A stretch of DNA of 64,000 nucleotides from Dictyostelium discoideum. Lineage: Eukaryota. The position numbers and the translations under genes are program-made. The notes under the pieces were generated by a model. The model had not been told where the DNA came from, did no database searches, and saw only the letters and a list, made by a program, of their open reading frames with translations. The DNA lies in contig CM000151.3 of the NCBI GenBank assembly GCA_000004695.1, positions 4,800,001 to 4,864,000 on the forward strand, written 5' to 3'. Shown piece after piece: positions 5,683 through 57,823 of the stretch; the stretch's first letter is position 1, and every line of letters starts with the position of its first letter.

Positions 5683-5978
5683 ATGATTGTCGAAGTTGAA
5701 TTAGGATTTTTATTATCAACATTATTTTTTACAATTATTTCAATTATTTTATTTTATTTTTTTATTAATAATAAAAATAATTTAATTGATCAATGCCAAG
5801 AAGTAACAAAATTAAATAATAAAGATAATAAAATTGTAAATAATAATAATAATAATTATAATAATAATAATTTTAATAAAATTGAAGAAATTAATGATGA
5901 TAAAAATAAAGAAATTATAAAATTAATTAATAATAGTAATAATAAAAATTTAAAAATTAAAATCCAAGAAATAGATAG

Positions 5979-6030
<52 letters not shown>

Positions 6031-8419: not shown

Positions 8420-8470
<51 letters not shown>

Positions 8471-9360
8471 TACAACAACAACAACAACAATTAAATACAA
8501 TTGATGATGATTCAAATAATTATTGTAATACAACAGGTACTATGGATAGTATTGATGAAATTAATAAAAATAATTATAGTGATAGTGAAAGTGATGAATT
8601 AAATGATGATCAAGCACCAATTATAGCACCAGTTCAACAATTATCATTTGGTCGTGTTACTAGAAGACATTCTATTGATATTATTATGTTTGAAAATTCT
8701 AGAGAATTATCAGAATTAAGAAATCTTGAAGATTCAACTAGATATTTGTCACCACGTTCAATGAATAATAATAATGGTAATAATGATAATGGTATCAATG
8801 GTGGTAGTGGAAACTCATTATTTGGATCATCAATTAAAGAAGAGATTGGTGGTACTTCTGATACAAGTTCATTAGCACAATCACCAAATTCATTATCACC
8901 AAGAGCCCCAACAAAGATTATGATATTAGATGATAATCCAGTTAGCTTAAAATTAATGCAACGTATCTTGGAAAGTCGTGGATTCGAATGTTATCCATTC
9001 GATTGCTCAGAGAAAGCCGTTGCTCAATTGGATCAAGTTAATCCTGCCATCATTTTCATGGATTGTGAAATGCCAAAAATGAATGGTTTCGAATGTACTC
9101 AATTAATAAGAAAGAGGGAACAAGAATCACTTTGTCTATTAAAAGATCGTAAGATTATTATTGCTTTGACTGCTCATATTAATCCTGAAATTCAAGTTAA
9201 ATGTTTCGATGCTGGTATGAATGATTTCATCTCAAAACCATTCAAACCACAATGCTTAGAATTAATCCTTAGAAAATGGGAAGATTGTATAAGTAATAAT
9301 CAATTAAATTATAACAATAGTTTAATTAATAATCAAACTACAATTCAAGAGCAAGTTTAA
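5683..9360 (+). CDS. Hybrid sensor histidine kinase (Dictyostelium Dhk family), 1225 aa, single exon.
   Basis: H-box HLSHELRTPIHSV, N-box NLIGNGLKYT, G1 VKDSGIGI, G2 GSGLGLAISKDLVELMGGKIW. The C-terminal receiver domain is IMILDDNPVSLKLMQRIL…IIFMDCEMPKMNGFE…KPF. The N-terminus has a hydrophobic anchor FLLSTLFFTIISIILFYFFI. A degenerate receiver-like segment (LSVLVVDKNPY…VVMIDIDN) sits between the kinase core and the true receiver. Long poly-N, poly-S and poly-Q tracts are present. Which Dhk paralog this is cannot be decided from sequence alone. Confidence 0.9.
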
Positions 9361-24885: not shown

Positions 24886-24948
24886 ATATAATATAAAATA
24901 TAAAATATAAAATATAAAATATAAAATATAAAATATAAAATATAAAAT
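24886..24948. repeat. (ATAAAAT)n heptanucleotide repeat abutting the bZIP start codon
   Basis: aatataaaatataaaat… repeated about 9 times, ending in ATG. Confidence 0.9.
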
Positions 24949-25156
24949 GGTTGAATTAGAATCAATGTCATCATCAAGCGAATGGTTTTTAAATAATAAC
25001 AGTAATATTCATAATAATACACACAATCATAATCATAATAATAATAATAACAATAATAATATAAATAGTAATAATCACGGCCATAGTGCAAATAGTAGTG
25101 CACACAACCACAACAACAATAATAATAATAATACCAATAATAATAGCAACAATAGC

Positions 25157-25194
<38 letters not shown>

Positions 25195-25762
25195 ACAAAA
25201 TACAAATAATGGTACATTTTTAACACCATTACCTGTATTAACTAATAGTAGTACTGGTTTGGGAAAAAGTATTGATTGGTTATATACAAACACCTCAAAT
25301 ACCGACTCACATAATATAAATTCAAGTAGTAATAAAGTTACAAAACTTTCAAATGGATTTTCTTTATTAAATCAAGATGGTACTCAATCACCATCATGCT
25401 TTTTAAATTTATCCTCAACTGGTAACCACGAAGATCCTGTACAAGTTCCAATGAACAATAATCCACAAGATCTCTTATTCCAATTTAATATTTCACCACA
25501 ATTACAATCACAAAATAATAATAGTAGTAATAATAATAATAACAATAATAACAATGGTAGTAATACTCCATTAAATGGTAGTAATGGTAGTAATAATAAT
25601 TATTCATCACCAATTTCACCAGTACCACAATACCAACACTCTGCTGGTTCTTCACCAATCCAAGAGTATCCATATTATTCACCATCATCATCACCCCATT
25701 CAAATGAATCAACCTCACCAATTACAGTTATTAAAGATAGTGGTAGTATTATAAATCCAATC

Positions 25763-25815
<53 letters not shown>

Positions 25816-26902
25816 TAATAATAACAATAATAATAATAATAAAAACAATTTAAATAATAATACATTCCAATTTTCATCATTAAAAAGTACAACTGGTATT
25901 GCACCACCATTACAAACCGATTATCATTTATTATATAATTTTGTTCAACAAAATTTTTCTGGAAAACCAGAAGATTCATTATTAAACCAAACTTTAAATA
26001 ATAATAATAATAATAATAATAACAATAATAATAATAATAATAATACAACAATCCAAACTTCACCACAACCACTTGTTTTACCACAAATTCAAAATCCATT
26101 TTTACCATATAATATTTCGACTCCAATTTCAGTTCCAAATAATATTTTATCATCAGCTCAATCATCAACAAATTCATCACCAAACAACAACAACAATAAT
26201 AATAATAATAATAACAATATTTTTTCAACTGTTAATAATAATAATAATCTCGTAAATAATAACAGTAATAATATGGAATTAGATGTAGATAAACCATTTT
26301 CACAAGAAAAATTTTATTTACACTTAAAATCAATTGTACCAAGTTTTAATGAAAATTTTGAAGCATCATCTGAATCTGCACAATCTGAATCATCTCAAGA
26401 AAGTGATTATGATGCACTCAATGAACGTAATAGTGGTGTTAAGAAGAGAGGTAGAGATGAAGATCAAATCGATACATCTGGTCAAGTTGTTTTATCACGT
26501 GAACATGTTTTGAAATTATCAAGTAAAGAAATTGAAGAATATGTTTCACGTTTAAAGATGCACCATATTCTTACTCAAGCCGAGGAAAAAGAATTGAAAA
26601 AACAAAGACGTTTAGTAAAGAATCGTGAATATGCTTCACAATCTCGTTCTCGTAGAAAGATTTATGTTGAGAATATTGAAACAAAACTTCAAAAAACAAA
26701 TCAAGATTGTGCTTCAATTAAATCTCAATTAAATTCAGTTAAAGAGGAAAATAAAGCCTTAAAGAAACAATTGTACAGTTTAACTAATACTCTTAAAAGT
26801 AATCCTTCTTTAGCTGAAGCATTTGGAAAAATTTTCTCTCCAATAGGTAATAATAAAACTTCTTCTGCTACATTATTTGTAAGTTTTATTTATTTAATTT
26901 TA

Positions 26903-26943
<41 letters not shown>

Positions 26944-27492
26944 AAATAAAAAAAATATACTAACTTTTTTATAATTTTTAGGTATTTTTCTTTTTATTTA
27001 CATTTACATTTTTATTCCAATCTTCTACAGTTACCTTTAATTCAGAGTATGTTTTATTTTTTTTTAAAATACCATTAGCGTTCATAAAATTTATATTAAT
27101 TTTTTTTTTTTTTCTCTTTTTATAGTAGGGTATCTTCAATTCAACGTAATCTTTTAAGTTTAGAAGAAACTCAAGCAACAGAATGGAACATAAAGAGAGC
27201 CATTCTTGAAGAAACTAAACAATATGTCGATTCTTTGTTAACCTCCTTATATACTTCAAAACTACAATCTTTATCAGAAACTCCTTTAGATACATCTAAT
27301 TATATCATCAACAACAACAATAACGAATCAACTTCCGAAACAACAACAAACAACAAAGTAGTTTCGACATCTAGTGATGATATTTCAAATGTTTTATCAA
27401 ATCTTTCTGTTTCCGATAAAGAAGTTCCTCAAAAGTGTAAAGATTCATCTGATTTAAAATGTGATTCTCCCCCACTTTCACCTTTAAATTAA
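24947..27492 (+). CDS. bZIP transcription factor. Proposed exons 24947..26878, 26982..27046 and 27126..27492; only exon 1 is certain.
   Basis: Canonical bZIP basic region KKQRRLVKNREYASQSRSRRK followed by a leucine zipper (L-x6-L heptads: LQKTNQDCASIKSQLNSVKEENKALKKQLYSL). Long poly-N tracts precede it. Exon 1 ends at GTAAGT (26879). Intron 1 is 103 nt and has TACTAAC at 26958..26964 and acceptor TTTTTAG. Inferred exon 2 encodes the hydrophobic segment VFFFLFTFTFLFQSSTVTFNS. A GTATGT donor at 27047 joins in phase to an acceptor at 27124/27127 and the ORF …RVSSIQRNLLSLEETQATEWNIKRAILEE…SPLN*. Confidence 0.6.
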
Positions 27493-31161: not shown

Positions 31162-32096
31162 ATGAGATTCATTGCTTTATTAATTTCATTTTTTGCTTTA
31201 TTAAAAGTTATTAGTGCCATCTCAGGTGTTGATATTTCATCAGCAGTAAGTTTTTTAAATTTCCACCCCTTTTTTTTTTTTTTTTTTTTTTATTCTTCCA
31301 AAACTTAAAAATTTCATCCAATTTTGATTTTAACTAAATATTTTTTTATATAAAATATAATAATAGAGCACCATTGAAAGTTTCACTTGTTTAAAGAGTG
31401 CTGGTTATGATTTTGCTATCATTCGTGCATATGAATCATTAGGTCAAGTTGATCCAAATGGCCCACACAGCGTTTATAATGCTCGTGACGCTGGTATTGA
31501 ATATGTTGTAAGTTATTGTAATTTTAATTTTTATATTTATTTTTAATTTTCAAAAAATATTTAATTAATAATATAAATGCAATAGGACGTTTATATGTTC
31601 CCCTGCCCAACATGCGGTAATGGTGCTGGTCAAGCAGAAACAATGGTTAATTACTTAAAAGGTTACAATGCAAATTATGGTATGGTTTGGTTAGATATTG
31701 AAGGTCCACAATACTGGATGTCACAATCAGAAAATGTTGCATTCTTTGAAAGTTTAGTTGCAGGATTAAAAGCTGAAGGTGCTCATATCGGTGTTTACAC
31801 ATCTGCAAGGTAATTTATTTAATTTTTATTTCTCCATCTCTCTTTTTCAATGTTTATAAACAATTACTAATCTATTAATAATAATTTTTTTTTAAAAAAA
31901 ACAACAGTCAATGGGAACCAATTATGGGTGGATACACTGGTGGTAGCGAATTCCCATTATGGTATGCTCATTATGATGGTAATCCATCTTTCAGCGATTT
32001 CTCACCATTCAATGGTTGGTCAACTCCATCAGTTAAACAATACGATGACACTGGTGACAGCTGTGGTTTAGGTTTCGATTTAAATTGGTACCCATA
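31162..32096 (+). CDS. GH25 (Chalaropsis/Entamoeba-type) lysozyme, secreted. Exons 31162..31245, 31367..31507, 31586..31809 and 31908..32096.
   Basis: Signal peptide MRFIALLISFFALLKVISA. GH25 hallmarks are GVDISSA…FAIIRAYES…, then DVYMFPCP…, then …WLDIEGPQYW…. Donors are GTAAGT, GTAAGT and GTAATT; acceptors are AATAG/AACAG. All introns are AT-rich and about 80-120 nt. Confidence 0.8.
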
Positions 32097-32239
32097 AATT
32101 ATTAAATTAATCAATTAATCAATCATATACGTCTGTAATATATTAATACTCACATATGATTTATTATTTAACTATCCCAATCAAAATTTATTAAAAAAAT
32201 AAAGTTTTTTATAAAAGTTAAAAATTAAAACTATCTTTT

Positions 32240-33020
32240 ATTATTGCGATTATTCAAGATTATGTACCAGTTATTCAACTGGACGTAAATGGTTCAATTT
32301 ACAATGCCAGTATGCTGGTATATATATATACATATGTATATTACTTTTTTTTTTTTTTAATTAGTTTTTTTAACTTTTTTTTTTTTTTATATTTATGAAT
32401 TAACTTTTTTTTTTTTATATTTATGAATTTATTTTTTAATCAGCAGATGGTAATAATTTAAAATTTAATAATTTTAGTTTGAAATGGATATGTTAATCAG
32501 TTTAAGTTAGTTTGGAAGAATGAATATATTCATTATTAATCATTGGAGGTTCAACTAAAGTTTCTTTTTTATTATCAGATTTAAAATTTTAAATTAAATA
32601 CTAATACTATTTTTTCATAGTTTTTTTTTTTTTTTTTTAATTAATACTAATTTATTTTACTTTTTTTATAATTAATTAGTTTGCTCATTACGATGGTAAT
32701 CCTTCATTCAGTGATTTCAGTGGTTTTGGTGGATGGAATTCACCAGCCATTAAACAATATTACAACACTGGTGACAGTTGTGGTTTAGGTTTCGATTTAA
32801 TTTGGTACCCCATAAATTATTAAATCAATCATATATACGTGTGTGTGTTAACCATCACAATCGAAATTTATTAAAAAAATAAAGTGTTTTTATTTTATAA
32901 AAATTAAAAATTAAATTTGTTTTTATTCGTGCTTGTGAATCTACTAGTCAATCAGATGTCAATTGTCCACATTCAGTTTACAATGCTCGTTATGCTGGTA
33001 TCGAATATGTTGATATTTAC
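32240..33020 (+). pseudogene. Decayed tandem partial copies of the upstream GH25 lysozyme gene (exon 2-like, exon 4-like and 3'UTR-like segments)
   Basis: 32243..32320 resembles exon 2 (…NGSIYNASMLV). 32690..32815 encodes FAHYDGNPSFSDFSGFGGWNSPAIKQYYNTGDSCGLGFDLIWYP*, followed by a copy of the lysozyme 3'UTR (ataaattattaaatcaatcatata…aaatttattaaaaaaataaagt). 32926..33012 is a second exon 2-like copy (FVFIRACESTSQSDVNCPHSVYNARYAGIEYV). None has a start codon or intact splice sites. Confidence 0.6.
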
Positions 33021-33581
33021 AAATTTGGCTTGTTAGGTTGACGTTCCTTTACTTTTTTTTTTTATTCCAATATTATTAAAATTTTAATAATTTAAAACCA
33101 TTAATTTAATTTCTGGAAAATTATTATAATTTTCCTTGTTTTTTTTTTTTTTGTTCACATTTACTAAATATAAACAATCATTATCGGCTGCAGTTATTAA
33201 AAAAATAATGAGAAAAAAATTAAAAAATATCTTTTCAATTTTTTTTTTTACAAATTAACGACCAAATAATTTTATTTTTTTTTAATTTTTATTTTTTATT
33301 TTTCATTTTTAAAAACCAACGATCTGATTATAATCTTATAAAATTTCGAGCTATGTATTGAGGAGGCATGCCAATTTCTTTCAAATATTTTTCAAAACCA
33401 TTACATATCAACATTTTTTCTACACAAATTTCATATTTTTTTAATTTTTTTTTTTTTTTAGAAAAATGACCCCGGAATTTATCAAATCATGATATTCAAA
33501 TCTTATTTGTTTTTAAAGGCATCTATATTTTAATCATCATTGGTATTTTTTATCCAATATACACAAAAAAAATTATTATTT

Positions 33582-33622
<41 letters not shown>

Positions 33623-33720
33623 TCATTCTTTTTTTTTTTATTCATTTTTTTATTCATTTTTAATTTTTTATTTATTTATTTATTTTATAATATAAAAAAA
33701 AATAAAAATAAAAAATAAAA

Positions 33721-33981
33721 ATGAAATTAATAATAAATAATTTTTTATTATTATTTTTAATTTTTTTATCAATCTCAATTCAATTTGTAAAATCAATTAA
33801 TCCACCACAAGATGAATTTGATTGTTTAATTAATATTATAAATAAATTTAATTATAAAACATTTGATTCATATAAAGATATTACTAAAATTTGTTCATTA
33901 ACTACTTGGGTGACTTGTGATTCAACAACAGGTTCTGTAAAATCGTATGTATAAATTTAAATTTAAAAATATATATTTTAG

Positions 33982-34015
<34 letters not shown>

Positions 34016-37000
34016 AATAAACACAATACTTTTTTTTTTTATTTGATCACTAATTATTAATTTTTAAAAATTAAAAAAAAAAAAAGATTTATTCTATCAA
34101 ATTTACAATATAATAATTATGAACAAGCAATTTCATCAGATTTTTCATGTTTACCAAATATTGAAACTTTAGCAATTTATTATCAAAATGTTTCAAAAGA
34201 ATTAATTTATTTTAAATCACCAAAACTTACAAAATTAACATTTTTTAATACACAAGTTTTAGGTGGCGCTGCACTTGATCAACCATTTGAAAAATTTGAT
34301 GATTTGTAAATATACATTACTACTATTATTATAAATTTAATTTTGTTTAGATATATAAAACTAATTATTTATGTTTTTTTTTTTTTTTTTTTTTTAATAA
34401 TATTTATGTAATTTTTTTCATAAAAACCATCAATAGATCAATAACTAATTGTAAAGGTTTAGATATAAATACACCATTTAAATTTTCATACTTTAATAAA
34501 GTAACTAGATTTATGATGAGTGGTTTATATGCACAACTTGAATTTGATTCGTTAGCATTTAAAAATAAAACTTCTTTCCATTTATCAGGTTCAAATTACC
34601 CAGATTTAACAGGTTATACTGGTATTCAACAAGCAGAATTTGAATTTGATGATACTTTTAAATTGGATTCAATATCAAATTTTGCAAAGTATACAAGTTT
34701 TGGAAGGCTTATAGTTTATCATTATTCAAATATTAAAATACCATTTTATTTTTCTCAAAATACTAAAATATATTCACTTTGGTTAGCTACTGGTGGTTCA
34801 ACATTTACATCTCCTTATGAAACACCAACCACAATGATTGATTTATCATCCACAAGGTATACTGATTTTTTAATTGGTGGCTTTACAAATGAAAATTTAA
34901 ATGGCAAATTTCCATTTATTATGCCATCAACTTGTTCTAATTTAAACTTTAATAGTAATAATTTAACCATTCTTCCAAATGATATTGTTTGTAAAACTGT
35001 TTCATTTCAAAATAATGGTATAAATTCAGAGTTACCTAAATTCATTGGTAAAGCAGATTCATATGATTTAAAAAATAATAAATTTACTGGGTAACTATAT
35101 ATATATATTTAGATAAACTTTTAAAAAAATATAATATATTATATTATATTGATACTAATATTTTTAAAAATATAATATGTATATACTTTATATAGTACTA
35201 TTGATCAATCATGGTGTTCAACTGAATTAGTTATAAATAATAATAAATTAATTGGAAAAATACCATCATGTTATAGTTGTTATTTAAATGCACCAAAACC
35301 ATCAGGTGGGTTAATAGCAATGTATGATAGATTTACAGGTGGTAATAGTTTTACAAATTTAAATAAAACCGCTGTTACATGTACAACATTTGCGCCCCAA
35401 GTAAAATGGTTATCATCAAATTCAATCAGTGTTACTGGTATTGATATTGGCTTTGATCCAAACATATGGTTATTTAATGGTGGTGTAAAAGTTATGCAAT
35501 CAATAAATTCATCTCCTGGTCAATATCCTCAATTAATACTTTATAGCCCAACTTTAACAGGTGAAACATTTACAATTAATTTCCAATATCCAATCAATTA
35601 TGTTTTTACATTCCCAAAAGTTTCAAAAAATCCACTAGTAACTTCAGCTTCAATCAATGGTAAATTATATACTTTTAATGGTACTTATTTTTCAAGTCAT
35701 ATGAGACATCAATACCAAGATATTAGAGTCAAAGGTTCTTTATGTACTATTGTATCAACTGACTTTTATTCCGTTACCTGTAGTGCAAATCTTGTCATTG
35801 ATTCAGCTTTAAAGATGGTTAATATTACAACTGGGCAAGATTATAACAAAAAAACAACAATTTACATTAGAATTGATGGTTTGGTTTCAAATGATCATCG
35901 TTGTCCAAATGATTGTTCAGGTAATCAAGGTATTTGTGATTTAAGTACTGGTACTTGTTATTGTGAATCAGGTTACTCTGGTAGCGATTGCTCTTTTAAA
36001 AATTGTGGATCTTCAGTTCCAGATTGTAATGGAGCAGGTACATGTAATGGTGCAACTGGTTTATGTACTTGTGATAGTACTCACGTTGGTGACTATTGTC
36101 AGTATTCAACTTCTGCTTGTCCAAATAATTGTGGTGGTTCAGCTTATGGTACTTGTAATGCAAATAAAACATGTACCTGTAATGCTGGTTTTGCTGGTGT
36201 AGATTGTTCAAAACCAACTCAATGTGTTAATAATTGCTCAGGTAATGGTGTATGTGTAAATGGTTTCTGTCAATGTTTTGATGGTTATGGAGATAGTTCT
36301 TGTAGTGCCAAGATTTTAAATTGTCCAGTTGGTGCAGGTGGAGCTCCATGTAATGGATTTTATGGAGCATGTAACCCTGCAACAGGAGTTTGCACTTGTA
36401 GGGATGGTTATCAAGGTAGCGCATGTGATGATCGTTTAATTCAATGTCCAGTTGCAATGAATTCAATAGTTTGTAATCGTTTAGATATTAATTGGTGTGA
36501 TACAACTACAGGTAAATGTCAATGTGATCCAAATTTCCAAGGTGTTGATTGTTCATTACCATTGGTTCAATGTCCATTATATGGTGGTAAAGTTTGCGGT
36601 GGATTTGGTACATGTAATAATCAAACTGGTGTTTGTTCATGTGACGGTTCCCATCAAGGTGCTGATTGTTCATTACCATTTATTCAATGTCCATTAAATG
36701 GTGGTAAAGTTTGCGGTGGATTTGGTACTTGTAATAATCAAACTGGTGTTTGTACATGTGACGGTTCTCATCAAGGTACTAGTTGCTCTTTACCATTTGT
36801 TCAATGTCCAATATCTTTTTTAAATCCATGTGGTGGTTCAAAAAGAGGTAATTGTAATAATCAAATTGGTGTTTGTAATTGTTTAGCTGGATATCAAGGT
36901 CTTGATTGTTCATTACCATTTATTAAATGCCCAACAATTAATTCAAATGATTGTAGTGGATTTGGTTCATGTAATAATCAAACTGGTATATGTGCCTGTG

Positions 37001-39855
37001 ATAGTTCTCACCAATCTACTGATTGTTCATTACCATTTATTCAATGTCCATTAAATGGTGGTAAAGTTTGTAGCAGTTTTGGTACTTGCGATAATCAAAT
37101 TGGTATTTGTACATGTGATGGTTCTCATCAAGGTAATGATTGTTCAAAAACTTTTGTTCAATGTCCATCAGTTAATTCAAATTCATGTAGTGGATTTGGT
37201 TCATGTAATAATGAAACTGGTGCTTGTTCATGTAATTCAGGTAGATTAAATAATGATTGCTCTGGTATTCAATGTGATGTTCCAAATTGTAATAGCCATG
37301 GTACATGTAATAATACTATTGGAAAATGTCAATGTGATAGTTCTCATCAAGGTAGTGACTGTAGTACTCCTTTTATTGATTGTCCATCTATAAATTTAAA
37401 TGATTGTAGTGGATTTGGTTCATGTAATAATCAAACTGGTACATGTACTTGTAATTCAGGTAAAACTTTATCAGATTGCACAGGTATTCAATGTAGTGTC
37501 CCAGATTGTAATGGTCATGGTACATGTGATACAAATATTGGTAAATGTCAATGTGATAGTTCCCATCAAGGTGCTGATTGTTCATTACCATTGGTTCAAT
37601 GTCCATTATATGGTGGTAAAGTTTGCGGTAATTTTGGTACTTGTAATAATCAAACTGGTGTTTGTTCATGTGATAGTTCTCATCAAGGTAGTGACTGTTC
37701 ATCACCATTTGTTAAATGTCCAACTGTAAATTCAAATGATTGTAGTGATTTTGGTTCATGTAATAATCAAACAGGTTCATGTAGTTGTGATAGTTCACAT
37801 CAGGGTGCTGATTGTTCATTACCATTTATTCAATGTCCAATATATTCAAATTCTTTATGTGGTGGTTCATCATTTGGCTCATGTAATAATCAAACTGGTG
37901 TTTGTACCTGTGATGGTTCTCAACAAGGTGCTGATTGTTCATTACCACTAATTCAATGCCCATCAATAAATTCAAAAGATTGTAGTGGTTTTGGTTCATG
38001 TAATAATGAAACTGGTATTTGTTCATGTAATTTAGGTAGATTAAATAATGATTGCTCTGGTATTCAATGTGGTTCTCCAAATTGTAATGGTCATGGTACA
38101 TGTGATACTACTCTTGGTGTATGTAAATGTGATAGTTCTCATCAAGGTAATGATTGTTCATTACCATTTATTAAATGCCCATCTATTAATTCAAATGATT
38201 GTAGTGGATTTGGTTCATGTAATAATCAAACTGGAGTTTGTTCATGTAATTCAGGTAGAGCTTTATCAGATTGTTCAGGTATTGAATGTAGTGTTCCAAA
38301 TTGTAATAATGGAGGTGTTTGTGATACTAGTATTGGTAAATGTCAATGTGATAGTTCTCATCAAGGTAATGATTGTAATATTCCATTAATCCAATGTCCA
38401 AATTTATGTAGTGGATTTGGTTCATGCAATAATCAAACTGGTATTTGCTCATGTAATTCAGGTAGATTAAATAATGATTGTTCAGGTATTCAATGTGATG
38501 TTCCAAATTGTAATAGCCATGGTACATGTGACATTACTATTGGTAAATGTCAATGTTTAAAAAATACATGGTCAGGTTCAGATTGTTCAATTCCATATCA
38601 AGTTATTAGATCGGTTAATGAATCAACAACAGCAGGTGGTGAAGCAACTTTTGAAGGTGTTTTTGGAGATGTTCATCAAGGTATTAAAATGCAAATTGGT
38701 GGTATTGATTGTCCAATAATATTTAATTCATCAACTATTATTAAATGTATGGCACCAGAAGGTAACGGAATTAAAAAAGTAACATTATTCCAAAATGATA
38801 TTTATTATACCTATGATAAATATAAATATAAAGCAATTGAATTGTCATGTCCATCAAATTGTTTAGGTAATGGTATTTGTAATACATCAACTGGAGAATG
38901 TAAATGTAATTCAGGTTATGGATCATACGATTGTTCTCCAATAATCAATAATGGTGGTGGTGGTGGTTTAGGTGAAACCCCCAATAGTAATAGTAATAGT
39001 GGTGAACTAGTTATCCCACCAAAATCAAATACTACATTAAATGAAGAAACAGGTGGTACAAATATTGTTAATCAAAAAACAAATTTCCAAATTTACTTTA
39101 AATCACTTTATGAAATTGATTATAGTGGTCAAATCGTTAAAACATATAAATTAGAAAATAATTGGGTAATTAATAATGATTCAAATAACAATGATCAATG
39201 TACATTTACTCAAACTATTGATAATGGTTGTAATATTACATCTAGAATTGATGAAATAAATGATGAAAATGGTAAAAAATTTGAATTTGCAGGTACAAGT
39301 TTCACAGTTTCAAATGGAGGTATTAAATTTACAATCACCATTGATAATTATCAATATCAAAGTAATTTAAATACATTAACTTTAGATTTTGTATCATCAG
39401 TTGGTGAAATTCAAGATACTCAAAACAACAATGAATGTAATTCAAAAGATACTGAAATCGATACAAGTAATGTAAATGATTTATCATCATCAAATTTCAA
39501 TTATATTAAAATATCAAAGAACAACAAAATTCTAAGTGGTAGATTTATTAATAGATTGTTATCAAATGGTAAAGCTACATTCTTTACAACATCGGTTAGA
39601 AATGAAAGTAATTCAATCATTGTTTCATTAAATTTACCACATTGTTCACAATGTATTATTGATCCTGACTTTTCAGTATTATTATCATCAGATTTTGTTT
39701 CAAATTGTCCATCAGTTGTTGATAAACGTAAATCATATATTGTACCAGTTTCAGTTGTTGCTTCAGTTGTTGGTGCCGTATCAGTTGCTTCTGCTGGTTT
39801 CCTCATTCGTAAAAAAATGATTGAAAGAAAATTCTTTAAAACCTATAGTAATTAA
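33721..39855 (+). CDS. Large type-I membrane receptor-like protein: signal peptide, plant-type LRRNT cap, LRRs, about 25 EGF/tenascin-like Cys repeats, an IPT/TIG-like domain and a C-terminal TM. Exons 33721..33944, 34087..34305, 34437..35090 and 35196..39855.
   Basis: Exon 1 has the signal peptide and an LRRNT_2-like cap (…DCLINII…CSLTTWVTCDSTTGSVKS). Exons 2-3 have LRR-like L..L.L..N.L.G.IP units and end …LKNNKFTG. Exon 4 holds the 1511-aa ORF with a 40-aa unit repeated about 25 times (CSLPFIQCPLNGGKVCGGFGTCNNQTGVCTCDGSHQGADCS). An IPT-like segment is GGIDCPIIFNSSTIIKCMAPEGNG. The TM is VPVSVVASVVGAVSVASAGFLI followed by RKKMIERK. Splice phases are all consistent (donors GTATGT, GTAAAT, GTAACT; acceptors AAAAAG, CAATAG, TATAG). 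Confidence 0.75.
36540..38560 (+). repeat. Tandem array of about 120-bp coding repeats (EGF-like units) inside the LRR-EGF gene
   Basis: Near-identical DNA units such as gattgttcattaccatttattcaatgtccattaaatggtggtaaagtttgcggtggatttggtacttgtaataatcaaactggtgtttg recur about 17 times. They generate spurious ORFs on other frames and strands. Confidence 0.85.
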
Positions 39856-40289
39856 TAAATAAATTAATATTATCACTTCCAAATATAAAATATTATTTTT
39901 ATTTTGAAAAGTTAAATTATTTTGTAAATATTATAAAAGATTGGATTTAAAATTTTTGGATATTGCCAAGATGTGCAGGATTTAATAATAGATGATTTTT
40001 GTTGGTGTCTGGATGGGAGCTAAATAAACTTTTAAAAGTTTTTTTTTGTTTTAGGTCTATGAGTTTTTTTTTTTTCGATTTTAGCTCCCCACTGTTTTAT
40101 TTATTATTTTTTTTCAAGAGCATTGTTTTAACCTTTGTTTTTTATATTTAGATCTCCAGGAAGATTTTATACAACCACCAATCACCAGGAAGATTTTTTT
40201 TTTTTTTTTTGTTTTTATTAAATACACATTTAAAAAATAATGAGTACCTGATGAATTATTACTAACTTTATCTATTTTCATTTATAAAG

Positions 40290-40760
40290 AAACAAATATA
40301 GATTGATATTTTAAATACTTTAAATCCTTATTATGTATTTTTAGAATATTATGGATATGGAATAGATGATAATAAAGAAAATTATTATATCTATATGGAA
40401 TGATTTGAAGGTGCAGAATCAATTAGAGAAAATTTAAATGGCTATAAATTTAGTGAAAGGAAAATTGATGATATTTCATTTAATGTTTTATATGCAATAA
40501 AACATTTACATGATGGCAATAATATAGCACATTGAGATATAAAGAGTGATCATAAACTATTGATATATGATAATAATCGTTTTGCCGGTAGTAATAATAT
40601 ATAAAATATTTCGATTAATTGATTGGTTGTTCAATAACATTGGAATAATACAAAATATAGCACAAGAGTTGGTACAGATCTATATATGGCACCAGAAGTT
40701 AAATTAATTTAACAAAATGGTAAAGCATCTCGTAAATCTGATATATGGTTGGTTTTATCC
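40290..40760 (+). pseudogene. Protein-kinase pseudogene fragment (subdomains V-IX) with several in-frame stops and a frameshift
   Basis: Translation gives YYIYME*FEGAESIRENL…LYAIKHLHDGNNIAH*DIKSDHKLLIYDNNRFAGSNNI*, then +1 frame …STRVGTDLYMAPEVKLI*QNGKASRKSDIW. These match HRDIKSDN (VIb), DFG-like, GTDLYMAPE (VIII) and SDIWS (IX), but with stops replacing key residues. Confidence 0.6.
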
Positions 40761-40990
40761 CCCTTCCCTATATGCAGTAATGGTGCAGGTCAAGTAGAAA
40801 CAATCGTAAAAAAATCCATCTTTTTGGATTCACTGGTGTTAGCGAATTCCCATTATGGTATGCTCATTATGATGGTAATCCATCTTTCAGCGATTTCTCA
40901 CCATTCAATGGTTGGTCAAGTCCATCAGTTAAACAATATGATGACACTGGTGACAGTTGTGGTTTAGGTTTCTATTTAAATTGGTATCCA
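40750..40990 (+). pseudogene. Ectopic GH25 lysozyme fragment (exon 3 start fused to an exon 4-like segment)
   Basis: …LSPFPICSNGAGQVETIVKK (compare YMFPCPTCGNGAGQAETMVNYLK) joins directly to GFTGVSEFPLWYAHYDGNPSFSDFSPFNGWSSPSVKQYDDTGDSCGLGFYLNWYP, which is near-identical to exon 4 of the gene at 31908..32096. The middle of exon 3 and the intron are missing. Confidence 0.6.
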
Positions 40991-41278
40991 TTAATCAATA
41001 ATTTAAAAAAAGTATTTTTATTTATAATTATAGGTCAATACCTTAATTTTAATTTTTTAAACACTCCAAAAAAAAATTTTTTTTTTATCTCAATTTCTTA
41101 AAATCTTAATTTCTTTTTTTATTATAAATAAGCAAAAAAAAAAAAAAAAAAAAAAAGTTTATAAAATTTGTACCCAAAAATAAATTATAGTGAGAAAATT
41201 GTTAATTTTCATTTTTATATTTTTTTTTTTTTTATTTTTTTGTTTTACTTTTTTATTTATTTAGAATTTACTACATTT

Positions 41279-41545
41279 CTAAAATCTTTTTTTAAGGATT
41301 GGATTTGATTGATTAACATAACCATTATTGGTTTTAGTGAAATTGCTTTCGTCATAAAAAACTTCTTCTTGTTGTTCATCTTCTTGTTGTTGATGATGAT
41401 TATTAATTTGTTGTGATATTTTATTTGAAATATTTGAACCAATTGAATTTATATTATTACCAATTGAATTTAAATTTTTATTTATAGTATCATCAACTTT
41501 ATTAAGATTAACAAAACCATTATTATTGTTATTATTAGTATTAGT

Positions 41546-41578
<33 letters not shown>

Positions 41579-42480
41579 TGAATAATTTTGATTTGGAATA
41601 CCTGGTGATGGTTGTTTTTTATTTGTGGCTAAATCTAAAATTTGAGTAAAAAGTTGTTGTGAAATTTTAATTATATTTTCAATGATTGGTTTCATTACAA
41701 CAATAATATTATTTAAAAGATCTTGAGATTGTTGACCTGTATTTTGTGGTTTCTTACCATACAAAATGTATGGTAAAAGTAAAGTTGAATATACAACCAA
41801 TACAATAATTGTATATCCAGAGAAAAATATACCAATAAAACCTAAAACTCCTAAAACAATTGATGTTTGAATATTAAACTAAAATAAATAAAAAAATAAA
41901 AAAAATAAAAAAAACAAAAATTAATTAGATAACCATAAAGTGTGTATTTGTATGTAAAGAGAGACAGGGGGACACTTACTTTAGTTGGATTAACATGTCT
42001 AAATCTATTCAATTCTGATAATGAATCACTGAATGCAAATTTTACTTTAACTATTAAATTGATAATATCTTCATAACTATCTTTTGAATCTTGAGTTGGC
42101 TATGTTAAAAAAATAAAAAAAAAAAATAAAAAAAAAAATTAGTATGGGATAAAAGAGAAAAAAATAAAAAATAAAAATAAAAATAAAAAAAATTAAAAAC
42201 TTACAATAACTCTTGTAATTGATTTTAAGTTAAAATTTAAAATTATAGTATGTAAAATTAAAATGAATGAAATGAAAAAACTAAAAAAAGAAAGTGCTGA
42301 TGTATTGAAATTTTTAAAATAGTATAAAATAAAAGATACTAATATAAAAAGTACACCAAAATCTATGGGTCTATTTAAAAGTAAAACATTTTTACTATAT
42401 TTAACTAAATCTTGATGGTCTTTAAATGTATCTTCTAATTGTTTTTTAAACTGTGCTTTTTTATGTAAAATTGATGACAT
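41279..42480 (-). CDS. Membrane protein with two long hydrophobic hairpin segments (reticulon/DP1-like topology). Exons 42205..42480, 41980..42099 and 41279..41878.
   Basis: Exon 1 (…IDFGVLFILVSFILYYF…ALSFFSFFISFILILHTIILNF…KSITRVI) ends at GTAAGT. Exon 2 (PTQDSKDSYEDIINLIVKVKFAFSDSLSELNRFRHVNPTK) runs from CATAG to GTAAGT. Exon 3 starts after ATTTATTTTAG and encodes FNIQTSIVLGVLGFIGIFFSGYTIIVLVVYSTLLLPYILYGKK… plus a poly-N tail. All junctions are phase 0. The topology (about 45-aa hydrophobic, about 55-aa loop, about 35-aa hydrophobic, tail) is reticulon-like; family assignment is tentative. Confidence 0.55.
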
Positions 42481-43411
42481 TTTTTTTTTTTTTTTTATTT
42501 TCTATTTTTTATTTTATTTAATTTAATTTTATTTTTATGATACTAATTGTCAATTAATTTAATGAAGGTATGAAAGAAAAAAATAAAAAAATAAAAAATT
42601 AAACCTTGCAATTTTTTGAAAAAAAAAAAAATTAAAAAAAAATATAAAAAAAAAAAAAATCACTCACTAATTTAAACAAAAAAAAAAGTAAGAAAAAAAA
42701 AAAAAAAAAAAAATTAAAAAAAAAAAAAAAAAAAAAAAAATGAAAAAAAAAAAATAAAAATAAAAAATAATTTAAGTGTACAAATCCGATTTCAAAGACA
42801 TTGATAAATTAAAATTGAGTCAACACTTTTTTTAATCTGGAGTTATGTTATGCAATCAATATCCAATATTGATATTTTTTATTTTTTTTATTTTTTTTAT
42901 TTTTTTTTTTTATTTTTTTTATTTTTTTCCAATTAGAATTGTTTATTTGAAATCTTTTATTTTTAATTATATTTATTTTTTTTTTCTTTTTTTATTTATT
43001 TATTTATTAATTTTATTCAATATATATTTTTTTGTTGTTTTTTTTTTTTTTTTTTATTTGATTTAAATTGTTTTTTATATTTTATTTTTTATTTTTTTTT
43101 TTGATCAGCGCAAGTAATCTGTGAGATTTTTGGAAAAAAAAAAAAAAAAAAAACTCAACTCCGACTTGCAAATCTACACAATTCATCCCAACAATTATTT
43201 TAAAAAAAAAATAAAAGATAAATAAAAATAAAAATAAATAATAAAAATAAAAACAAATAAATATGTTTTAAAACATTCATTGGGATTTAAACAGTGGTTT
43301 TTGGTAAATTTCAAAAAAAAAAAAAAAAAAAAAAATTAAAAATAAAAAAAAGATTTTTTTTTTTTTTTTTTGAAATGACCGTTATATTAATTAAAAATTA
43401 AAAATAAAAAA

Positions 43412-43448
<37 letters not shown>

Positions 43449-43460
43449 AAAAAAAAGAAA

Positions 43461-43491
<31 letters not shown>

Positions 43492-43633
43492 TTTTTATCA
43501 CATCAAAACACACCCCACAATAACAATACCTATAACAATAAATAATTTATCTATAATAAGTAATTGTAATATCAAGTAATCTATATTTTAAAAGATTTCA
43601 TTTTATAATTAATCTTTAGAGGATTAAATTTAT

Positions 43634-43672
<39 letters not shown>

Positions 43673-43748
43673 GAGTAAATTTAAAGAAATAATTGGTACC
43701 AATTATTTTTTTCTTTTTTTTTTTTTTTTTTATTTATTATTATTTTTT

Positions 43749-43788
<40 letters not shown>

Positions 43789-44838
43789 TATTTCCTTTAA
43801 ATTTATTTCTATTTTTATTTATTTATTATTATTATTTTGTTTTTTTTTTTTTTTTTTATTACACATAAACACCCCATCTATCGGAATACCCCCAAAAAAA
43901 CACTTTTTTTATTAGGCAAAATAGAAAAAAAAAAATAAAAAATAAAAAATAATAATACCTATTTATATCCAGTAATAAAAAATAAAAATAAATTAATAAA
44001 TAAAAATACTTAAATTTGACATAAATAACAGTTTGTTACGATAGAATCAGAGTAAATATATATATATATATAAAAATAAAATAAATAAATAAATTTGAAC
44101 AAACAACAAAAAAAAAAAAAAAAAAAATCACCACTTTACTCAGATTTATGGTTTCAAAATTTATTATATTTATTTAATATATTATATAAAAATATTAATA
44201 ATACAAAACCTTTACATATAAAAAACCAATTTTTTATTTTTTTTTTTTATTTTTTTTTTTTTTTTATTTTTTATTTTTTTTTTTTATTTTTTTTTTTTTA
44301 ATTTGTTGATTAATTAACAATACCACACCCCAACAACTCACAATAAAATACTCTCAATATTGTTATTTTTGAATTTCTACATAATAAATTTACATTAAAT
44401 AATTTCAGCGGAAAAAAAAATTTATATGATCACATATTAAGTTTTTGTGTTTCCATAAAATAATAATAATAATTTGTATGCTCAATAACTCATTCAAATT
44501 TTTTTCTCTTTTTATTAATATTTTTTAATTCAATTAATTTTTTTTTTATTTTTTATTTTTTTAAAATATTTTTTTAATTGAATTAATTTTTTTATTTTTA
44601 ATTTTTTTTAATTGTTTTTATTTTTATTTTTTTTTTATTTATTTTCTATTTTATTTTTTTTTAAAATTACTAATATTCCAACATCATATTATTTATATAC
44701 ATATATATTTCTAGATTTTCAAATTCTTTTCCTAAAAAAAAACTTTTTTTAAATAAAAAAAAAAAAACCAACCAAAAAAAAAAAAAAAACAACAACTTAA
44801 AGTAAATTTAAAATTTACTTTTAAATTTTTATTTTTCT

Positions 44839-45336
44839 ATGATGTCCTATTCAATACAAGAGAGGACAAATAGTAATAATACTACCAATAGTATTAATAG
44901 TAATAATAATAATATTAATAATAATAATAATAATATTAATAATAATAATAATAATATTATTAATAATAATATAATGAATGGGAAACAACAACAACAAAAT
45001 TTTAATAATTGGATTTCTGGTAATAGTATCAGCATAAATCCAATTGGAAATAATAGTAATAATAATAATACAAGTAATTTAATTCATTTAAATAATGGTA
45101 GTGATATTTTAAGTGGAAGTGGAAGCACAAGTAGTAGATTTTTTGTAAATAATGGAAATGGTAAAGTTTTAGGTTTAAATAGTTTTAGTGCAATTGATTC
45201 ATTAGACTATAGAAATAAATTAGTGGGGCCTATACCTCAACCTCAACAATCTTTACAACAACCACCAAATTCTAATAATAATAATAATAATAATAGTATA
45301 AGTAATAATAGTAATAATAATATCAATAATAATATC

Positions 45337-45410
<74 letters not shown>

Positions 45411-45676
45411 TAACAATAATAATAATAATGATAATAATAGTAATTACCAACAACAACAATTATATATACAACAAAAATTATTACAACAACAAAATATATT
45501 TAATCAACCTTTTCACCATGATAATTTTATAAATTCATCTGAAGATATAAAGATAGCAACACAAACAGCAAATGCAAATTATATACAACAACAAATTCTT
45601 TTAAATGTAGCTTCTACAGGTGTAAATAATAATAATAATAATATAAATAGTAATAATAGTAATAATAATAGTAGTA

Positions 45677-45745
<69 letters not shown>

Positions 45746-46087
45746 GTAATAATAATAATAGTAGTAATAGTAATAATACTACAAATAATGGTAACAATAG
45801 TCAAAAATATAATAGTTTAAATGGTTCCAGTAATGGCACCAATAATTTTGTAAATAGTTTAAATAATGTAGATGATAATAATTTAAAAATAAATGGGATT
45901 TATAATATAAATAATAATAATAATATAAATAATAATAATAATATAAATAATAATAATAATAATAACAATAATAATAATAATAGTAATATAAATAAAAGTA
46001 ATATGAACAGTAATAGTAATAATAGTTTAAATGGTAATATTAATATTAATGGAAATAGTGCAAATATTATAAATAACAATAGTAGTA

Positions 46088-46162
<75 letters not shown>

Positions 46163-46432
46163 GTAATAATAATAATAATAATAATAGTAATAATAATATA
46201 AATGGATTGATAAATCATTCACCAAGTTTAGGTTTAAGACCAATTTCTCCATCAAATATATCTCAATTGTTTTCTATATCACAAATTGTTCAACCACCAA
46301 TATCTTCAGCGTTTGACATGGAAAATAATAATAAATATTCTTTTGATTATGACTTTGGTTTACCACAACCTCAATTTTTCACAACACAACCACCTCAACA
46401 ACAAAAAACTTTACAACAATTCCAATTACACC

Positions 46433-46494
<62 letters not shown>

Positions 46495-46798
46495 CTTCAC
46501 CAACAACAATTTAAACAACCAGTACCACAAAAATCACCACAAATCCTTCACCAGCCCTCAATTAGCAGTATTCACCAAAATAATAATAATAATAATAATA
46601 TCGATTTCTTATCACAACAAATCAACCAAATTCAGTTACAACAACAATCACCCAATATTCAACCATCAAATAAATCTCTTTCACCACCCCAAAATTTACA
46701 AAATGGTTTAAATAATAGCAATAATAATATAATTACAAATTATAGTACAAATAATAATAATAATAATAATAATACAAATAATAATTATAATAATAGTA

Positions 46799-46843
<45 letters not shown>

Positions 46844-48156
46844 GCAATAATACTAATATTACAGCTGCAACTGCCATTCAACAGGCAGCAGTAGCACAAC
46901 AACAAGCAGCTGCTGCTCAACAGGAACAGCTCAGACAAGAACAATTAAAACAACAAGAGCAAGCAAAACAACAACAAGAGCAAGCAAAACAGCAACAACA
47001 ACAACAATTATTACAACAACAAGAGCAAGCAAAACAACAACAGGAGCAAGCAAGACAACAACAAGAGCAAGCAAAAATTCAACAAGTTCAACCAACATCA
47101 TCGTCATCACCAACACCATCACCAACACCTTCACCAACATTATTGAATAGTAACCAAGATTTATCAAACTTTTTGGACGAAACAAACTTCCCAACATTAA
47201 ATAATTCAAATAAGGATTTAAGAAAGAGTCAAACTTCAACCATCAACATACCACAATCACCAGTTACAAATGGACTTTCATCTTCACAAGATGATAAATT
47301 GAAGAGCAGAAAGAAATTGGAAACAAGTCAAGGTGGTTTAAATAGTTCAAAAGATTCCTTGGCAACTGCCATCACCAAATCAATGGCTGCCAATTCATCA
47401 CCCACCAGTGTTACCACTACTGTCTCCATCAATGGTAGTGGTTCTAATAGTTTGAGTACAAGCGCAACAAATATTAACACCTCCACTCAAGAAAGTGAAA
47501 AAATCAAATTATCTTGGTTTGAATTCCAAACACTTTCAAATTCAATTGGAGATGGTGAAGATGAAGATCATTTACCAAGTAGAGTACTTTGGGTAGGAAA
47601 TATTGGTATGGACGTTTCAGAAGATGATTTGAAATATGAATTTGGCTCATTTGGTGAGTTAGAAAGTGTACGTATCTTACATAATAAATATTGTGCTTTT
47701 GTAAACTTTAAAGATACCAACGAAGCAATCAATGCTAAAAAAGGAATGCATAATCAAGTTTTGGGTAGCCAATACATCGTTGTAAACTTTAGACATCCAA
47801 AATCTGATGATTTTATCAATGGTGTCCCAGTTGTACCAATCACAACACCAGAAACCCTCAACTCTATATCAAGAGCAATTTACATTGGTAATGTAAGTGA
47901 TAACCTTCCAGAGAAGGAAATAAGAAAAGAATGTGAAAAATATGGTGAAATTGAAAGCATTCGTATCTTAAGAAAAAAAGCTTGTGCCTTTGTAAACTTT
48001 ATGAACATTCCAAATGCTACTGCTGCTTTACAAACTTTAAACGGTAAAAAATTAGGTGATACTATCGTTAGAGTTAATTATGGTAAAGTTAGTCAAAGTA
48101 CAACTAATACAAATTCAAATAATACTGGAAATAAGAAATCAAATAAAAAGAAATAA
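44839..48156 (+). CDS. N/Q-rich RNA-binding protein with two C-terminal RRM domains (1105 aa)
   Basis: RRM1 is VLWVGNIGMDVSEDDLKYEFGSFGELESVRILHNKYCAFVNFKDTNEAINAKKGMHNQVLGSQYIVVNF. RRM2 is IYIGNVSDNLPEKEIRKECEKYGEIESIRILRKKACAFVNFMNIPNATAALQTLNGKKLGDTIVRVNY. The N-terminal 800 aa are poly-N/poly-Q low complexity. Single ORF. Confidence 0.85.
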
Positions 48157-48527
48157 ACAAAAAACAAAAAAAAAAAAACAAAAAAAAAAAATTATTATAC
48201 AGCTGCTTAATCACATATACATATACACACACACACACAATCACATATCATCCATTCATATAAAATTATAACTAAATATTTTAAATAAATAATAAATAAA
48301 AAAAAAAAAAAAAAAAAAATTATTATTGGTTTTGTTTGATCTTTTATATACAATTTTTTTCAGTACTTTTTTTAATTATGAAGATACAATTTAATCTTTT
48401 TAAAAATAATTACAAATTAATTATTTATTTTAACAATTAGATTGGTAAAAAATTTAAGGATTATTTTGTGTTAAAATTGAGAACCAACATATGTCTTCCA
48501 TTAAAATATTCAGTGGTTTTTTTTTTT

Positions 48528-56308: not shown

Positions 56309-57823
56309 TTATTTAACTCTTTTAAAATAAACCTTATATTCAACAAATACTTGACTTGATTCATAAACAATATATTCACGAAGTTGTAAAGCAGCTTTTG
56401 GACCATAATTTGGTTTTGATTCACCAATGACACTATTGTAAATATTGATATTATTTGGTTTCTTTGGTTCAGTTCTACGACCATTCCAAAATTGACCAGG
56501 ACCATTACCACGGAAAACATTTTCAACCAAGCAATCACCCATAACCACACGACAAACCAATAAACAAACTTCATCACTTGGTTTACATTTACAAGAGGTA
56601 GCTTGGAAACCACTACAAGTACAAGCACCTCCATGACAATATTGATTTGATTTTGATGAATTCTCTGCAAAGTAAAGCCCAGCACCAAACATACCATCCA
56701 AAGAGCAAAATCTTGGATCGAAACCAAACTTTGCAATACCAGCAACTGATGAAACGTTTAAACCATGGAATAAGAATAATTCATTGGCTTTCTTATCCAA
56801 TTCCGGACTACCAGGAATATTGGTGATAACACTATGAATTGGTGGACATGACCCATTGTTATCATCGAGAATCTTTTGTTTTCTTGCATGATAACTAACC
56901 CATAACATTGGATTTTGCACTCTAACAACACGGGTAACCTTTAAATCATTGAAAACAATTGGTGATAATGTACCCATACCTTTATGATTACTTGAAATGG
57001 TTTGACTAAATAATTTACTCATCCATTGGAACTCATTCTCATGTGGTTTCACATCAACCTCTTTATAATTCATTGAGTCTACATCTGTCCATGTATTTGG
57101 GCATTTTATAATACTTGAAATTGAAATTGTACTCATTGTTGATGTTAATGTTGGTTTTTGAGTTGTTGATATTGTTGCACCATTACTTGCTATCATTTGA
57201 CCTTTACTACTTGATCTTGTTACTGGTGCAGTTGATGTGGTGGTAGTAGTTGTGGGTGTTGCAGTAGTAGTAGTGGCATGAGAAGCGGCCATAGCATTCG
57301 CAGCAGTTGCAGCATTCGAAATCTGTTGTGATTTTGTTAATTTTTTCGCTGGTCTAACTTTTAATGGATCTTCTCTCTTTAAATTTCTTCTCTTGGATTC
57401 ATCATCATACCTTCTTTGTAACATATTTTGGAAATCAACAAAACGTTCTTTATCAACCTTTAATTTCTTTTTACCAATTGAAAATGCTTTCTCTAATTTC
57501 TTACGCATATTCATATCGTCATACTCTACCCAAACATCTTGATGACCACCACCTTTGCTTGGTCCACCACCTGAATCACCTGCCCAAAACCATCTTGCTA
57601 TATAATCTTCATCATCTTCATCATCATCACTATCATCACTAACATCACTATCACTACTATCACTACTACTATCACTATTCTCACTATCTGTATCACTATC
57701 ATCACTACTTATTATTTTTCTTCTTCTTTTTGATGTTGCATTTGTAGTTGGTGGTGGTAATGTTGATCCTGGTATACTTTTTTTTTTTTATTTATATAAG
57801 TATGTAATTATTATTATTATTAC

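Follow-up and report, generated by a model that had tools for sequence, protein, structure and literature searches.

Whether the immediate proximity of a gene for a large receptor-like surface protein to a gene for a bacteriolytic lysozyme marks a locus for recognising and killing bacteria is the question raised by a 64,000-nucleotide (nt) stretch of the Dictyostelium discoideum genome (GenBank assembly GCA_000004695.1, contig CM000151.3, positions 4,800,001 to 4,864,000 of the forward strand; hereafter the window, whose own numbering is used throughout). An earlier note on this DNA, which has a G + C content of about 20%, had placed at 33721-39855 a gene whose product combines leucine-rich repeats (LRRs), an array of epidermal growth factor (EGF) repeats, an IPT-like domain, a single transmembrane (TM) helix and a short basic tail, and had taken its position next to a glycoside hydrolase family 25 (GH25) lysozyme as suggestive of such a locus. 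As set out below, the protein is a member of the ComC family, and its adjacency to the lysozyme gene is a young, D. discoideum-specific rearrangement.

The gene is real and the coordinates given for it are exact. Its four exons on the + strand, with splice sites read by eye in the D. discoideum window, encode a predicted product of 1918 amino acids (aa) that matches, residue for residue, the AX4 protein XP_644286.1 (EAL69981.1, UniProt Q86AS3), annotated as 'EGF-like domain-containing protein' on an AX4 contig of 8.48 Mb. The exons and the N-terminal features are as follows.

33721..33944, + strand: exon 1, signal peptide and most of the cysteine-containing N-terminal cap (translation matches XP_644286.1)
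33721-33795, + strand: signal peptide, aa 1-25 (N-terminal hydrophobic segment, aa 1-23 by hydropathy)
aa 26-92, running into exon 2 as far as 34138, + strand: N-terminal cap (motif kept across the ComC family)
34087..34305, + strand: exon 2, last part of the cap, then the beginning of LRR_ComC (splice sites from the sequence)
34437..35090, + strand: exon 3, central part of LRR_ComC with the first of the plant-type NxLxGxIP repeats
35196..39855, + strand: exon 4, the remainder of the protein, stop codon included (long open reading frame)

Two unusually long homopolymeric stretches accompany the gene, namely a T-rich tract of about 100 nt at 33584-33686, immediately 5' of the start codon, and a run of 40 A at 33982-34021 within intron 1; both are of a kind typical of Dictyostelium non-coding sequence. 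The model from an AX4-like strain (KAM9945394.1) has 1917 identical residues and then a 40-residue extension replacing the final Asn and the stop codon (39850-39855), presumably because one more intron had been predicted at the last codon.

The structural reading of the earlier note holds, including its IPT-like domain. From the N-terminus, the protein consists of a signal peptide, a cysteine-capped LRR domain, two beta-sandwiches, 24 EGF units, an IPT/TIG domain, one further EGF unit, a supersandwich, a TM helix and a basic tail of 14 residues, and all non-EGF Pfam families among the LRR, sandwich and supersandwich parts are ComC-based (PF24141, PF24142, PF24143 and PF22933).

34139-35250, + strand: LRR_ComC domain PF24141, aa 93-384, exons 2-4 (Pfam E = 5.1e-86, model positions 1-288, full length)
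aa 428-505, + strand: first ComC beta-sandwich PF24142 (Pfam E = 2.1e-14, 54.5 bits, cut-off 27)
aa 512-593, + strand: second ComC beta-sandwich PF24143 (Pfam E = 3.9e-12, 46.9 bits, cut-off 27)
35380..35877, + strand: both ComC beta-sandwiches together
35902..38586, + strand: 24 contiguous six-cysteine EGF units, aa 602-1496 (Pfam EGF_2 and EGF_TEN; regular-expression segmentation)
38602..38826, + strand: IPT/TIG domain PF01833, aa ~1502-1576 (Pfam 27 bits, E = 4.4e-6, cut-off 20.9)
38848..38934, + strand: 25th EGF unit, aa 1584-1612 (cysteine-pattern scan; column conserved in family members)
39025..39681, + strand: ComC supersandwich PF22933 (ComC_SSD), aa 1643-1861 (Pfam E = 2e-86)
39736..39852, + strand: TM helix, aa ~1880-1904, and basic cytoplasmic tail of 14 residues (hydropathy, family alignment)

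The TIG score was obtained with the segment between the EGF units scanned alone, and the structure model of this segment (predicted local distance difference test, pLDDT, 70-83) superposes on the IPT domains of plexin A1, MET and EBF with a root mean square deviation (rmsd) of 1.8-2.9 Å (Foldseek). The low-confidence model of the supersandwich bears a weak likeness to the supersandwiches of the YidC periplasmic domain, polysaccharide lyase and kojibiose phosphorylase (rmsd 7-12 Å). Pfam EGF_2 covers 25 stretches (1.6e-112), the units being of the tenascin/teneurin type and devoid of the calcium-binding motif. There are 28 N-glycosylation sequons in the whole protein, with 14 N-x-S/T sites in aa 602-1496, and 11 of the 28 are formed by the motif CNN[QE]TG within EGF units. 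Hydrophobic segments are limited to two, the signal peptide and the TM helix, and a family-wide LNLPHC..CIIDPDFSVL motif lies upstream of 39736, before the helix. Pfam detects no kinase domain in the protein, and the 14-residue tail (RKKMIERKFFKTYSN) holds no signalling domain or known motif.

With LRR_ComC, both beta-sandwiches and the supersandwich followed by TM helix and basic tail, everything that defines the ComC family is present. When the N-terminal 602 aa were used as the query of an exhaustive HMMER search, 58 cluster representatives were found at E <= 1e-3, none of them more than 36% identical. About 45 relatives share the full layout, the PDFS motif, the TM helix and the short basic tail while carrying 1-20 EGF units, the 25 units described here being the most among these same-layout proteins. 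Those relatives whose names were looked up all come from group-4 Dictyostelium species, and the ComC family, so far as has been seen, comprises type I surface glycoproteins occurring only in dictyostelids.

The founding member, comC (DDB_G0271692), encodes 1501 aa with 14 EGF units, and its D. purpureum ortholog 1513 aa (PMC4931340 supplement); this ortholog is among the HMMER matches, with 33% identity over the N-terminal ~600 aa. Shared with ComC are the domain order from LRR head to supersandwich, the LNLPHC..IIDPDFSVL motif, the single TM helix and the short basic tail. However, comC lies at another chromosomal position and acts in development, whereas the gene described here is probably expressed on return to growth. 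Because its size (1918 against 1501 aa) and EGF count (25 against 14) differ and its identity to the comC ortholog is just 33%, the gene is, as judged from its sequence, a paralog of comC and not comC itself.

One explanation takes the protein for a variable receptor for bacteria, of the pattern-recognition or the phagocytic kind, that is functionally coupled to the adjacent GH25 enzyme in a sensing and killing locus. The loci fetched around GH25 homologs for comparison comprised four syntenic lineages, D. cf. discoideum, D. citrinum, D. firmibasis and D. dimigraforme, and the best, non-syntenic GH25 matches in D. purpureum and P. violaceum. The same flanking genes are kept in all four syntenic lineages, namely those for a bZIP protein, a cytosolic LRR protein and an epimerase upstream, and for a reticulon-homology protein, an RNA recognition motif (RRM) protein and a large gene downstream. 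There, GH25 is directly followed by the shared downstream genes, and tblastn searches with three parts of the receptor (N-terminal, EGF and C-terminal) gave no ComC-like match up to 10 kb away from the syntenic GH25 in any of the four. The best GH25 loci of D. purpureum and P. violaceum contain no ComC-like sequence either, and one ComC-family member examined elsewhere has no lysozyme neighbour. By comparison, D. discoideum has an extra 8.7 kb (32118-40825), bounded by two copies of the last GH25 exon, that was not found at the GH25 loci of the six other lineages examined, while AX4 and three further D. discoideum assemblies possess the ComC-like gene. The adjacency could have arisen by an insertion in D. 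discoideum or by deletions elsewhere through recombination between the repeats. The proximity of the lysozyme is thus no sign of a conserved unit for sensing or killing bacteria, and the recognition and killing locus proposed from this juxtaposition is not supported, given the missing linkage in these lineages and the lack of a cytoplasmic signalling domain.

Nor is there, as had been supposed, an array of GH25 lysozymes next door. A GH25 neighbour does exist, but it is one intact gene accompanied by non-functional fragments, one of which lies downstream of the ComC-like gene.

31162..32097, + strand: intact GH25 lysozyme gene, 4 exons, 212 aa (XP_644284.1/Q86KC1; 100% match to AX4 GH25)
32680..32811, + strand: GH25 pseudo-fragment, aa 169-212 (tblastn, frame translation)
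32916..33026, + strand: GH25 pseudo-fragment, aa 44-80 (tblastn, frame translation)
40826..40990, + strand: second copy of the last GH25 exon, aa 158-212, 93% identical, downstream of the ComC-like gene

The intact gene, whose product is named 'Probable GH family 25 lysozyme 2', corresponds to DDB_G0274181 (PMC7078664 supplement). Sequence of its last exon is present in three directly oriented copies (31906-32097, 32680-32811 and 40826-40990) and the fragment encoding aa 44-80 in one, a pattern that suggests ectopic recombination among GH25 copies; in addition, the 40826-40990 copy has kept the ancestral 3' flank, as found behind the GH25 gene of D. citrinum. The GH25 genes of two divergent D. 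discoideum strains (locus L001, 10001-11000, and locus L006, 6001-7060, compared with 31162-32097 of the window) are mosaic, the middle exons having 56-78% protein identity to AX4, the last exon 89% and the flanking DNA about 90%. In the sibling species, an inverted pair of GH25 genes occupies the syntenic site, and exchange between such copies may therefore explain the mosaic structure. A third, distant GH25 copy, suspected as donor in D. citrinum and D. firmibasis from gaps in the locus tags, was discarded, as the copies are simply adjacent.

In the annotations of these two strains, the lysozyme and the receptor appear as one fused product, with one model of 2159 aa (L001 10001-18706) and another of 2071 aa (L006 6001-14651), filed as KAM9966855.1 and KAM9965337.1. 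That wild strains indeed make a GH25-ComC-like fusion is extremely improbable: two independent strain annotations do join GH25 exons or fragments to receptor exons, but the fused models omit the receptor signal peptide and take decayed GH25 fragments as exons, and in AX4 the GH25 gene is closed by a stop codon of its own at 32095-32097, 1.6 kb before the ATG and signal peptide with which the receptor begins. This is probably typical automated over-merging.

As to rearrangements beyond the GH25 site, the reticulon-homology and RRM genes are inverted as a block in D. firmibasis (locus L007, 11619-18713, against 41244-48187 of the window), where their orientation is opposite to that in D. discoideum, D. 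citrinum, D. dimigraforme and D. cf. discoideum. Other, unrelated genes of the window are listed here.

5683-9360, + strand: hybrid histidine kinase with a receiver domain
24947-26974, + strand: bZIP transcription factor with very long Asn tracts
56309-57514, - strand: poly(ADP-ribose) polymerase (PARP) catalytic-domain protein

The EGF array is the variable part of the protein. The earlier note had counted about 25 near-identical 40-aa units, of which the count stands (25 six-cysteine units) and the near-identity does not. Units 1-6 are old and divergent, being only 50-69% identical to any other unit, and units 7-24 fall into three subtypes by pairwise alignment, with DNA identities of 76-91% within and 55-70% between subtypes and a mean of 66% over all pairs, while the program TRF reports periods of 117 and 219 nt with 73-80% matches. 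The figure of about 90% DNA identity over roughly 2 kb was accordingly too high. Units 7-24 are clearly a recent tandem expansion; the array grew by tandem duplication of 39-aa and 73-aa blocks, and it is still changing through unequal exchange and conversion between units.

36571..38586, + strand: expanded sub-array, EGF units 7-24 (TRF, pairwise identities)
38269..38475, + strand: block of two EGF units, aa 1391-1459, missing in strain GCA_054859385.1 (protein and DNA alignments)

Evidence for continuing change comes from a cluster at 90% protein identity that contains models from three other D. discoideum assemblies, one of them AX4-like and two from the divergent strains, whose units were compared after setting aside the lysozyme-fused part of the models. 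The divergent strain GCA_054859385.1 lacks these 69 aa, which correspond to exactly two EGF units and are removed in frame, at a locus that is free of Ns and resides on a 4.9-Mb contig; the second divergent strain has the same number of units as AX4. The expectation that unit number would be polymorphic among wild isolates is thus borne out, since it deviates from AX4 in one of the two informative strains and is not constant. Differences between AX4 and the wild strains are concentrated at units 15 and 16, and in unit 16 there is a tract that switches subtype, its first half belonging to subtype A in AX4 and to subtype B in the wild strains, as expected from conversion between units.

In comparisons with the wild strains, the ratio of non-synonymous to synonymous substitution rates (dN/dS) is 0.36 for the whole gene, 0.45-0.50 for units 7-24, about 0.09 for the end of the LRR domain together with the sandwiches, and 0.06-0.11 for the TIG region. 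The gene is under purifying selection overall, which is relaxed in the EGF array. A gene-specific hyper-polymorphism was considered and rejected: in the divergent strains the flanks differ from AX4 as much as the gene does, and therefore the ComC-like gene is not unusually polymorphic.

These strain differences bear on the possibility that the protein serves, as ComC may, in cell-cell communication or adhesion during the multicellular stage, perhaps including discrimination between self and non-self through the variable array. The comC mutant aggregates and streams aberrantly and forms spores only when mixed with the wild type in chimeras, its phenotype thus being non-cell-autonomous (PMC4931340 supplement), and the family here appears to be restricted to group-4 dictyostelids, as is comC (PMC4931340 Table 3); together with the full ComC architecture and the polymorphism between strains, this would fit such a role. 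Nevertheless, the role appears rather unlikely for this gene, given the low N-terminal identity to the comC ortholog, the fact that the whole locus of the divergent strains is similarly different from AX4, and the selection of the gene's probable counterpart in a published screen for 'minimal expression during development' (PMC7190356).

That counterpart is DDB_G0274177, with which the ComC-like gene is probably identical, as indicated by the adjacency of identifiers and accessions and by the description. The lysozyme EAL69983 is DDB_G0274181 and the ComC-like gene EAL69981, which is the only EGF gene for several genes on either side. Tandem neighbours in this genome carry identifiers that differ by two, as do the adjacent genes alyA, alyB and alyC. 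DDB_G0274177 is described as having 'EGF-like domains' (PMC7190356). Nichols et al. selected it by a screen aimed at strong early induction in dedifferentiation and minimal developmental expression, the screen favouring genes induced on bacteria and on liquid medium alike (PMC7190356). Its published knockout in AX2 had no phenotype in the one assay done, PCNA being re-induced normally (PMC7190356).

The early, non-developmental induction of DDB_G0274177 on re-feeding (PMC7190356) would also agree with a receptor for bacteria, as would the plant-type repeats at the end of the LRR domain, the unit-number polymorphism and raised dN/dS of the EGF array, the detection of the GH25 lysozyme protein in phagosomes (PMC3756923) and the proposal, though not the demonstration, that D. 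discoideum LRR proteins act as pattern-recognition receptors (PMC5758549). On the other hand, DDB_G0274181 belongs to a peptidoglycan-catabolism gene set that is down on Klebsiella (PMC7078664) and has a log fold change (logFC) of -2.09, about 4-fold down, in one bacterial condition (Lamrabet et al., PMC7078664 Table S2), and DDB_G0274177, if the gene is correctly mapped to this identifier, does not appear, for any bacterium tested, in the complete lists at |logFC| > 2 (PMC7078664 Table S2). In a eukaryote, moreover, each of the two genes has a promoter of its own, and the remaining neighbours (histidine kinase, bZIP, RRM protein, PARP) are unrelated. The variation sits in the spacer, while the part of the head that was analysed, i.e., the LRR end and the sandwiches, has the low dN/dS given above, and the tail is without a signalling domain. 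With the adjacency itself having arisen via a block flanked by duplicated GH25 exon sequence, a bacterial receptor coupled to the lysozyme is quite improbable.

The likeness to plant receptors deserves separate consideration. The last four or so LRRs (aa ~318-392) do fit the plant-type pattern LxxLxLxxNxLxGxIP that had been noticed earlier, and a sequence search of the PDB matches nothing but ectodomains of plant LRR kinases, at E values from 2e-7 to 0.16 (phmmer, aligned aa ~295-390; 9uob at 2e-7, TMK1 at 2e-4, PRK3 and PRK6). The N-terminal cap had likewise been compared to that of plant LRR receptor-like kinases, and here the resemblance is one of motif only: LRRNT_2 (PF08263) does not match the cap even at E <= 10, and no standard LRR family such as LRR_8 is significant by Pfam. 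The cap motif C-x6/7-C, V-x-C-D/N, TG-x-V is conserved over the N-termini of the ComC family, and the resemblance therefore belongs to the family as a whole and not to this gene. With the plant ectodomains (TMK1 4hq1, PRK3 5wls, PRK6 5y9w) the protein shares the pattern of its last four or so LRRs, and the layout of its cap is similar to theirs (Cys-x6/7-Cys ... V-x-C-D ... G-x-V); however, most of its LRR domain is irregular and family-specific, the LRRs are followed by EGF, TIG and supersandwich domains, and in place of a kinase there is a tail of 14 residues.

Long runs of six-cysteine, non-calcium EGF units in a type I membrane protein are also found in the tenascin, teneurin and MEGF arrays, including CED-1/Draper/MEGF10; Pfam Teneurin EGF models score strongly on the array, and comC is described in dictyBase as similar to MEGF11 (PMC4931340 supplement). 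Unlike CED-1, Draper and MEGF10, however, the protein has an LRR head and a ComC-specific membrane-proximal module, no EMI domain by Pfam, and neither NPxY nor YxxL in its tail. The Dictyostelium Tgr proteins are comparable as polymorphic type I surface proteins with IPT/TIG domains (PMC4931340 Table 4), but in contrast to Tgr adhesion and allorecognition there is a single TIG here, the variation consists in repeat number and conversion within the EGF spacer, and no partner gene lies alongside.

Taken together, the explanation we favour, and consider probable, is that the protein is a ComC paralog acting as a glycosylated adhesion or recognition protein on the cell surface, without a signalling domain of its own, redundant in growth-phase cells and unrelated to the lysozyme. 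The LRR head would be the binding surface, the N-glycosylated, non-calcium EGF array a long spacer holding it tens of nanometres off the membrane, and the module of TIG, EGF and supersandwich an anchor close to the membrane. Because the tail is without a signalling domain or known motif, the protein would probably be no self-sufficient receptor but an adhesin, a ligand or, within a complex, the subunit that binds. Should it be DDB_G0274177, the gene would be switched on transiently as developing cells resume feeding and be nearly silent in development; this induction, along with the normal re-induction of PCNA in the knockout, would point to a redundant role in surface adhesion or recognition in growth-phase cells. 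The adjacent lysozyme may then be seen as an unrelated phagosomal enzyme.

Several points weigh against this explanation. The assignment to DDB_G0274177 was made from adjacent identifiers and accessions and a description rather than from a sequence match. An AlphaFold2 model for the first 578 aa, computed from four sequences, is too poor (pLDDT 40.8) to establish the LRR geometry, and the C-terminal model is weak (pLDDT 59.5), supporting the TIG assignment only. Induction on re-feeding would, moreover, also fit a part played in contact with prey. This last point could be taken further, in that a lysozyme gene pair of D. discoideum sensu stricto might very recently have captured a ComC-family protein, whose length-variable EGF stalk and plant-type LRR head would serve contact with prey or particles as feeding resumes, the linkage representing an early stage of a feeding-related cluster; we regard such a scenario as highly improbable. 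The adhesion or recognition paralog remains the favoured explanation.

The ComC-like gene is already annotated in the AX4 reference and its family-specific domains are already modelled by Pfam; the significance of the present analysis is thus mostly limited to annotation, and it does not go beyond the annotation that exists. The lysozyme adjacency at this locus is a case in which gene neighbourhood should not be taken as function, and the array itself provides a clean example of how the EGF stretch of a surface protein shifts in length and composition between strains via unequal exchange.

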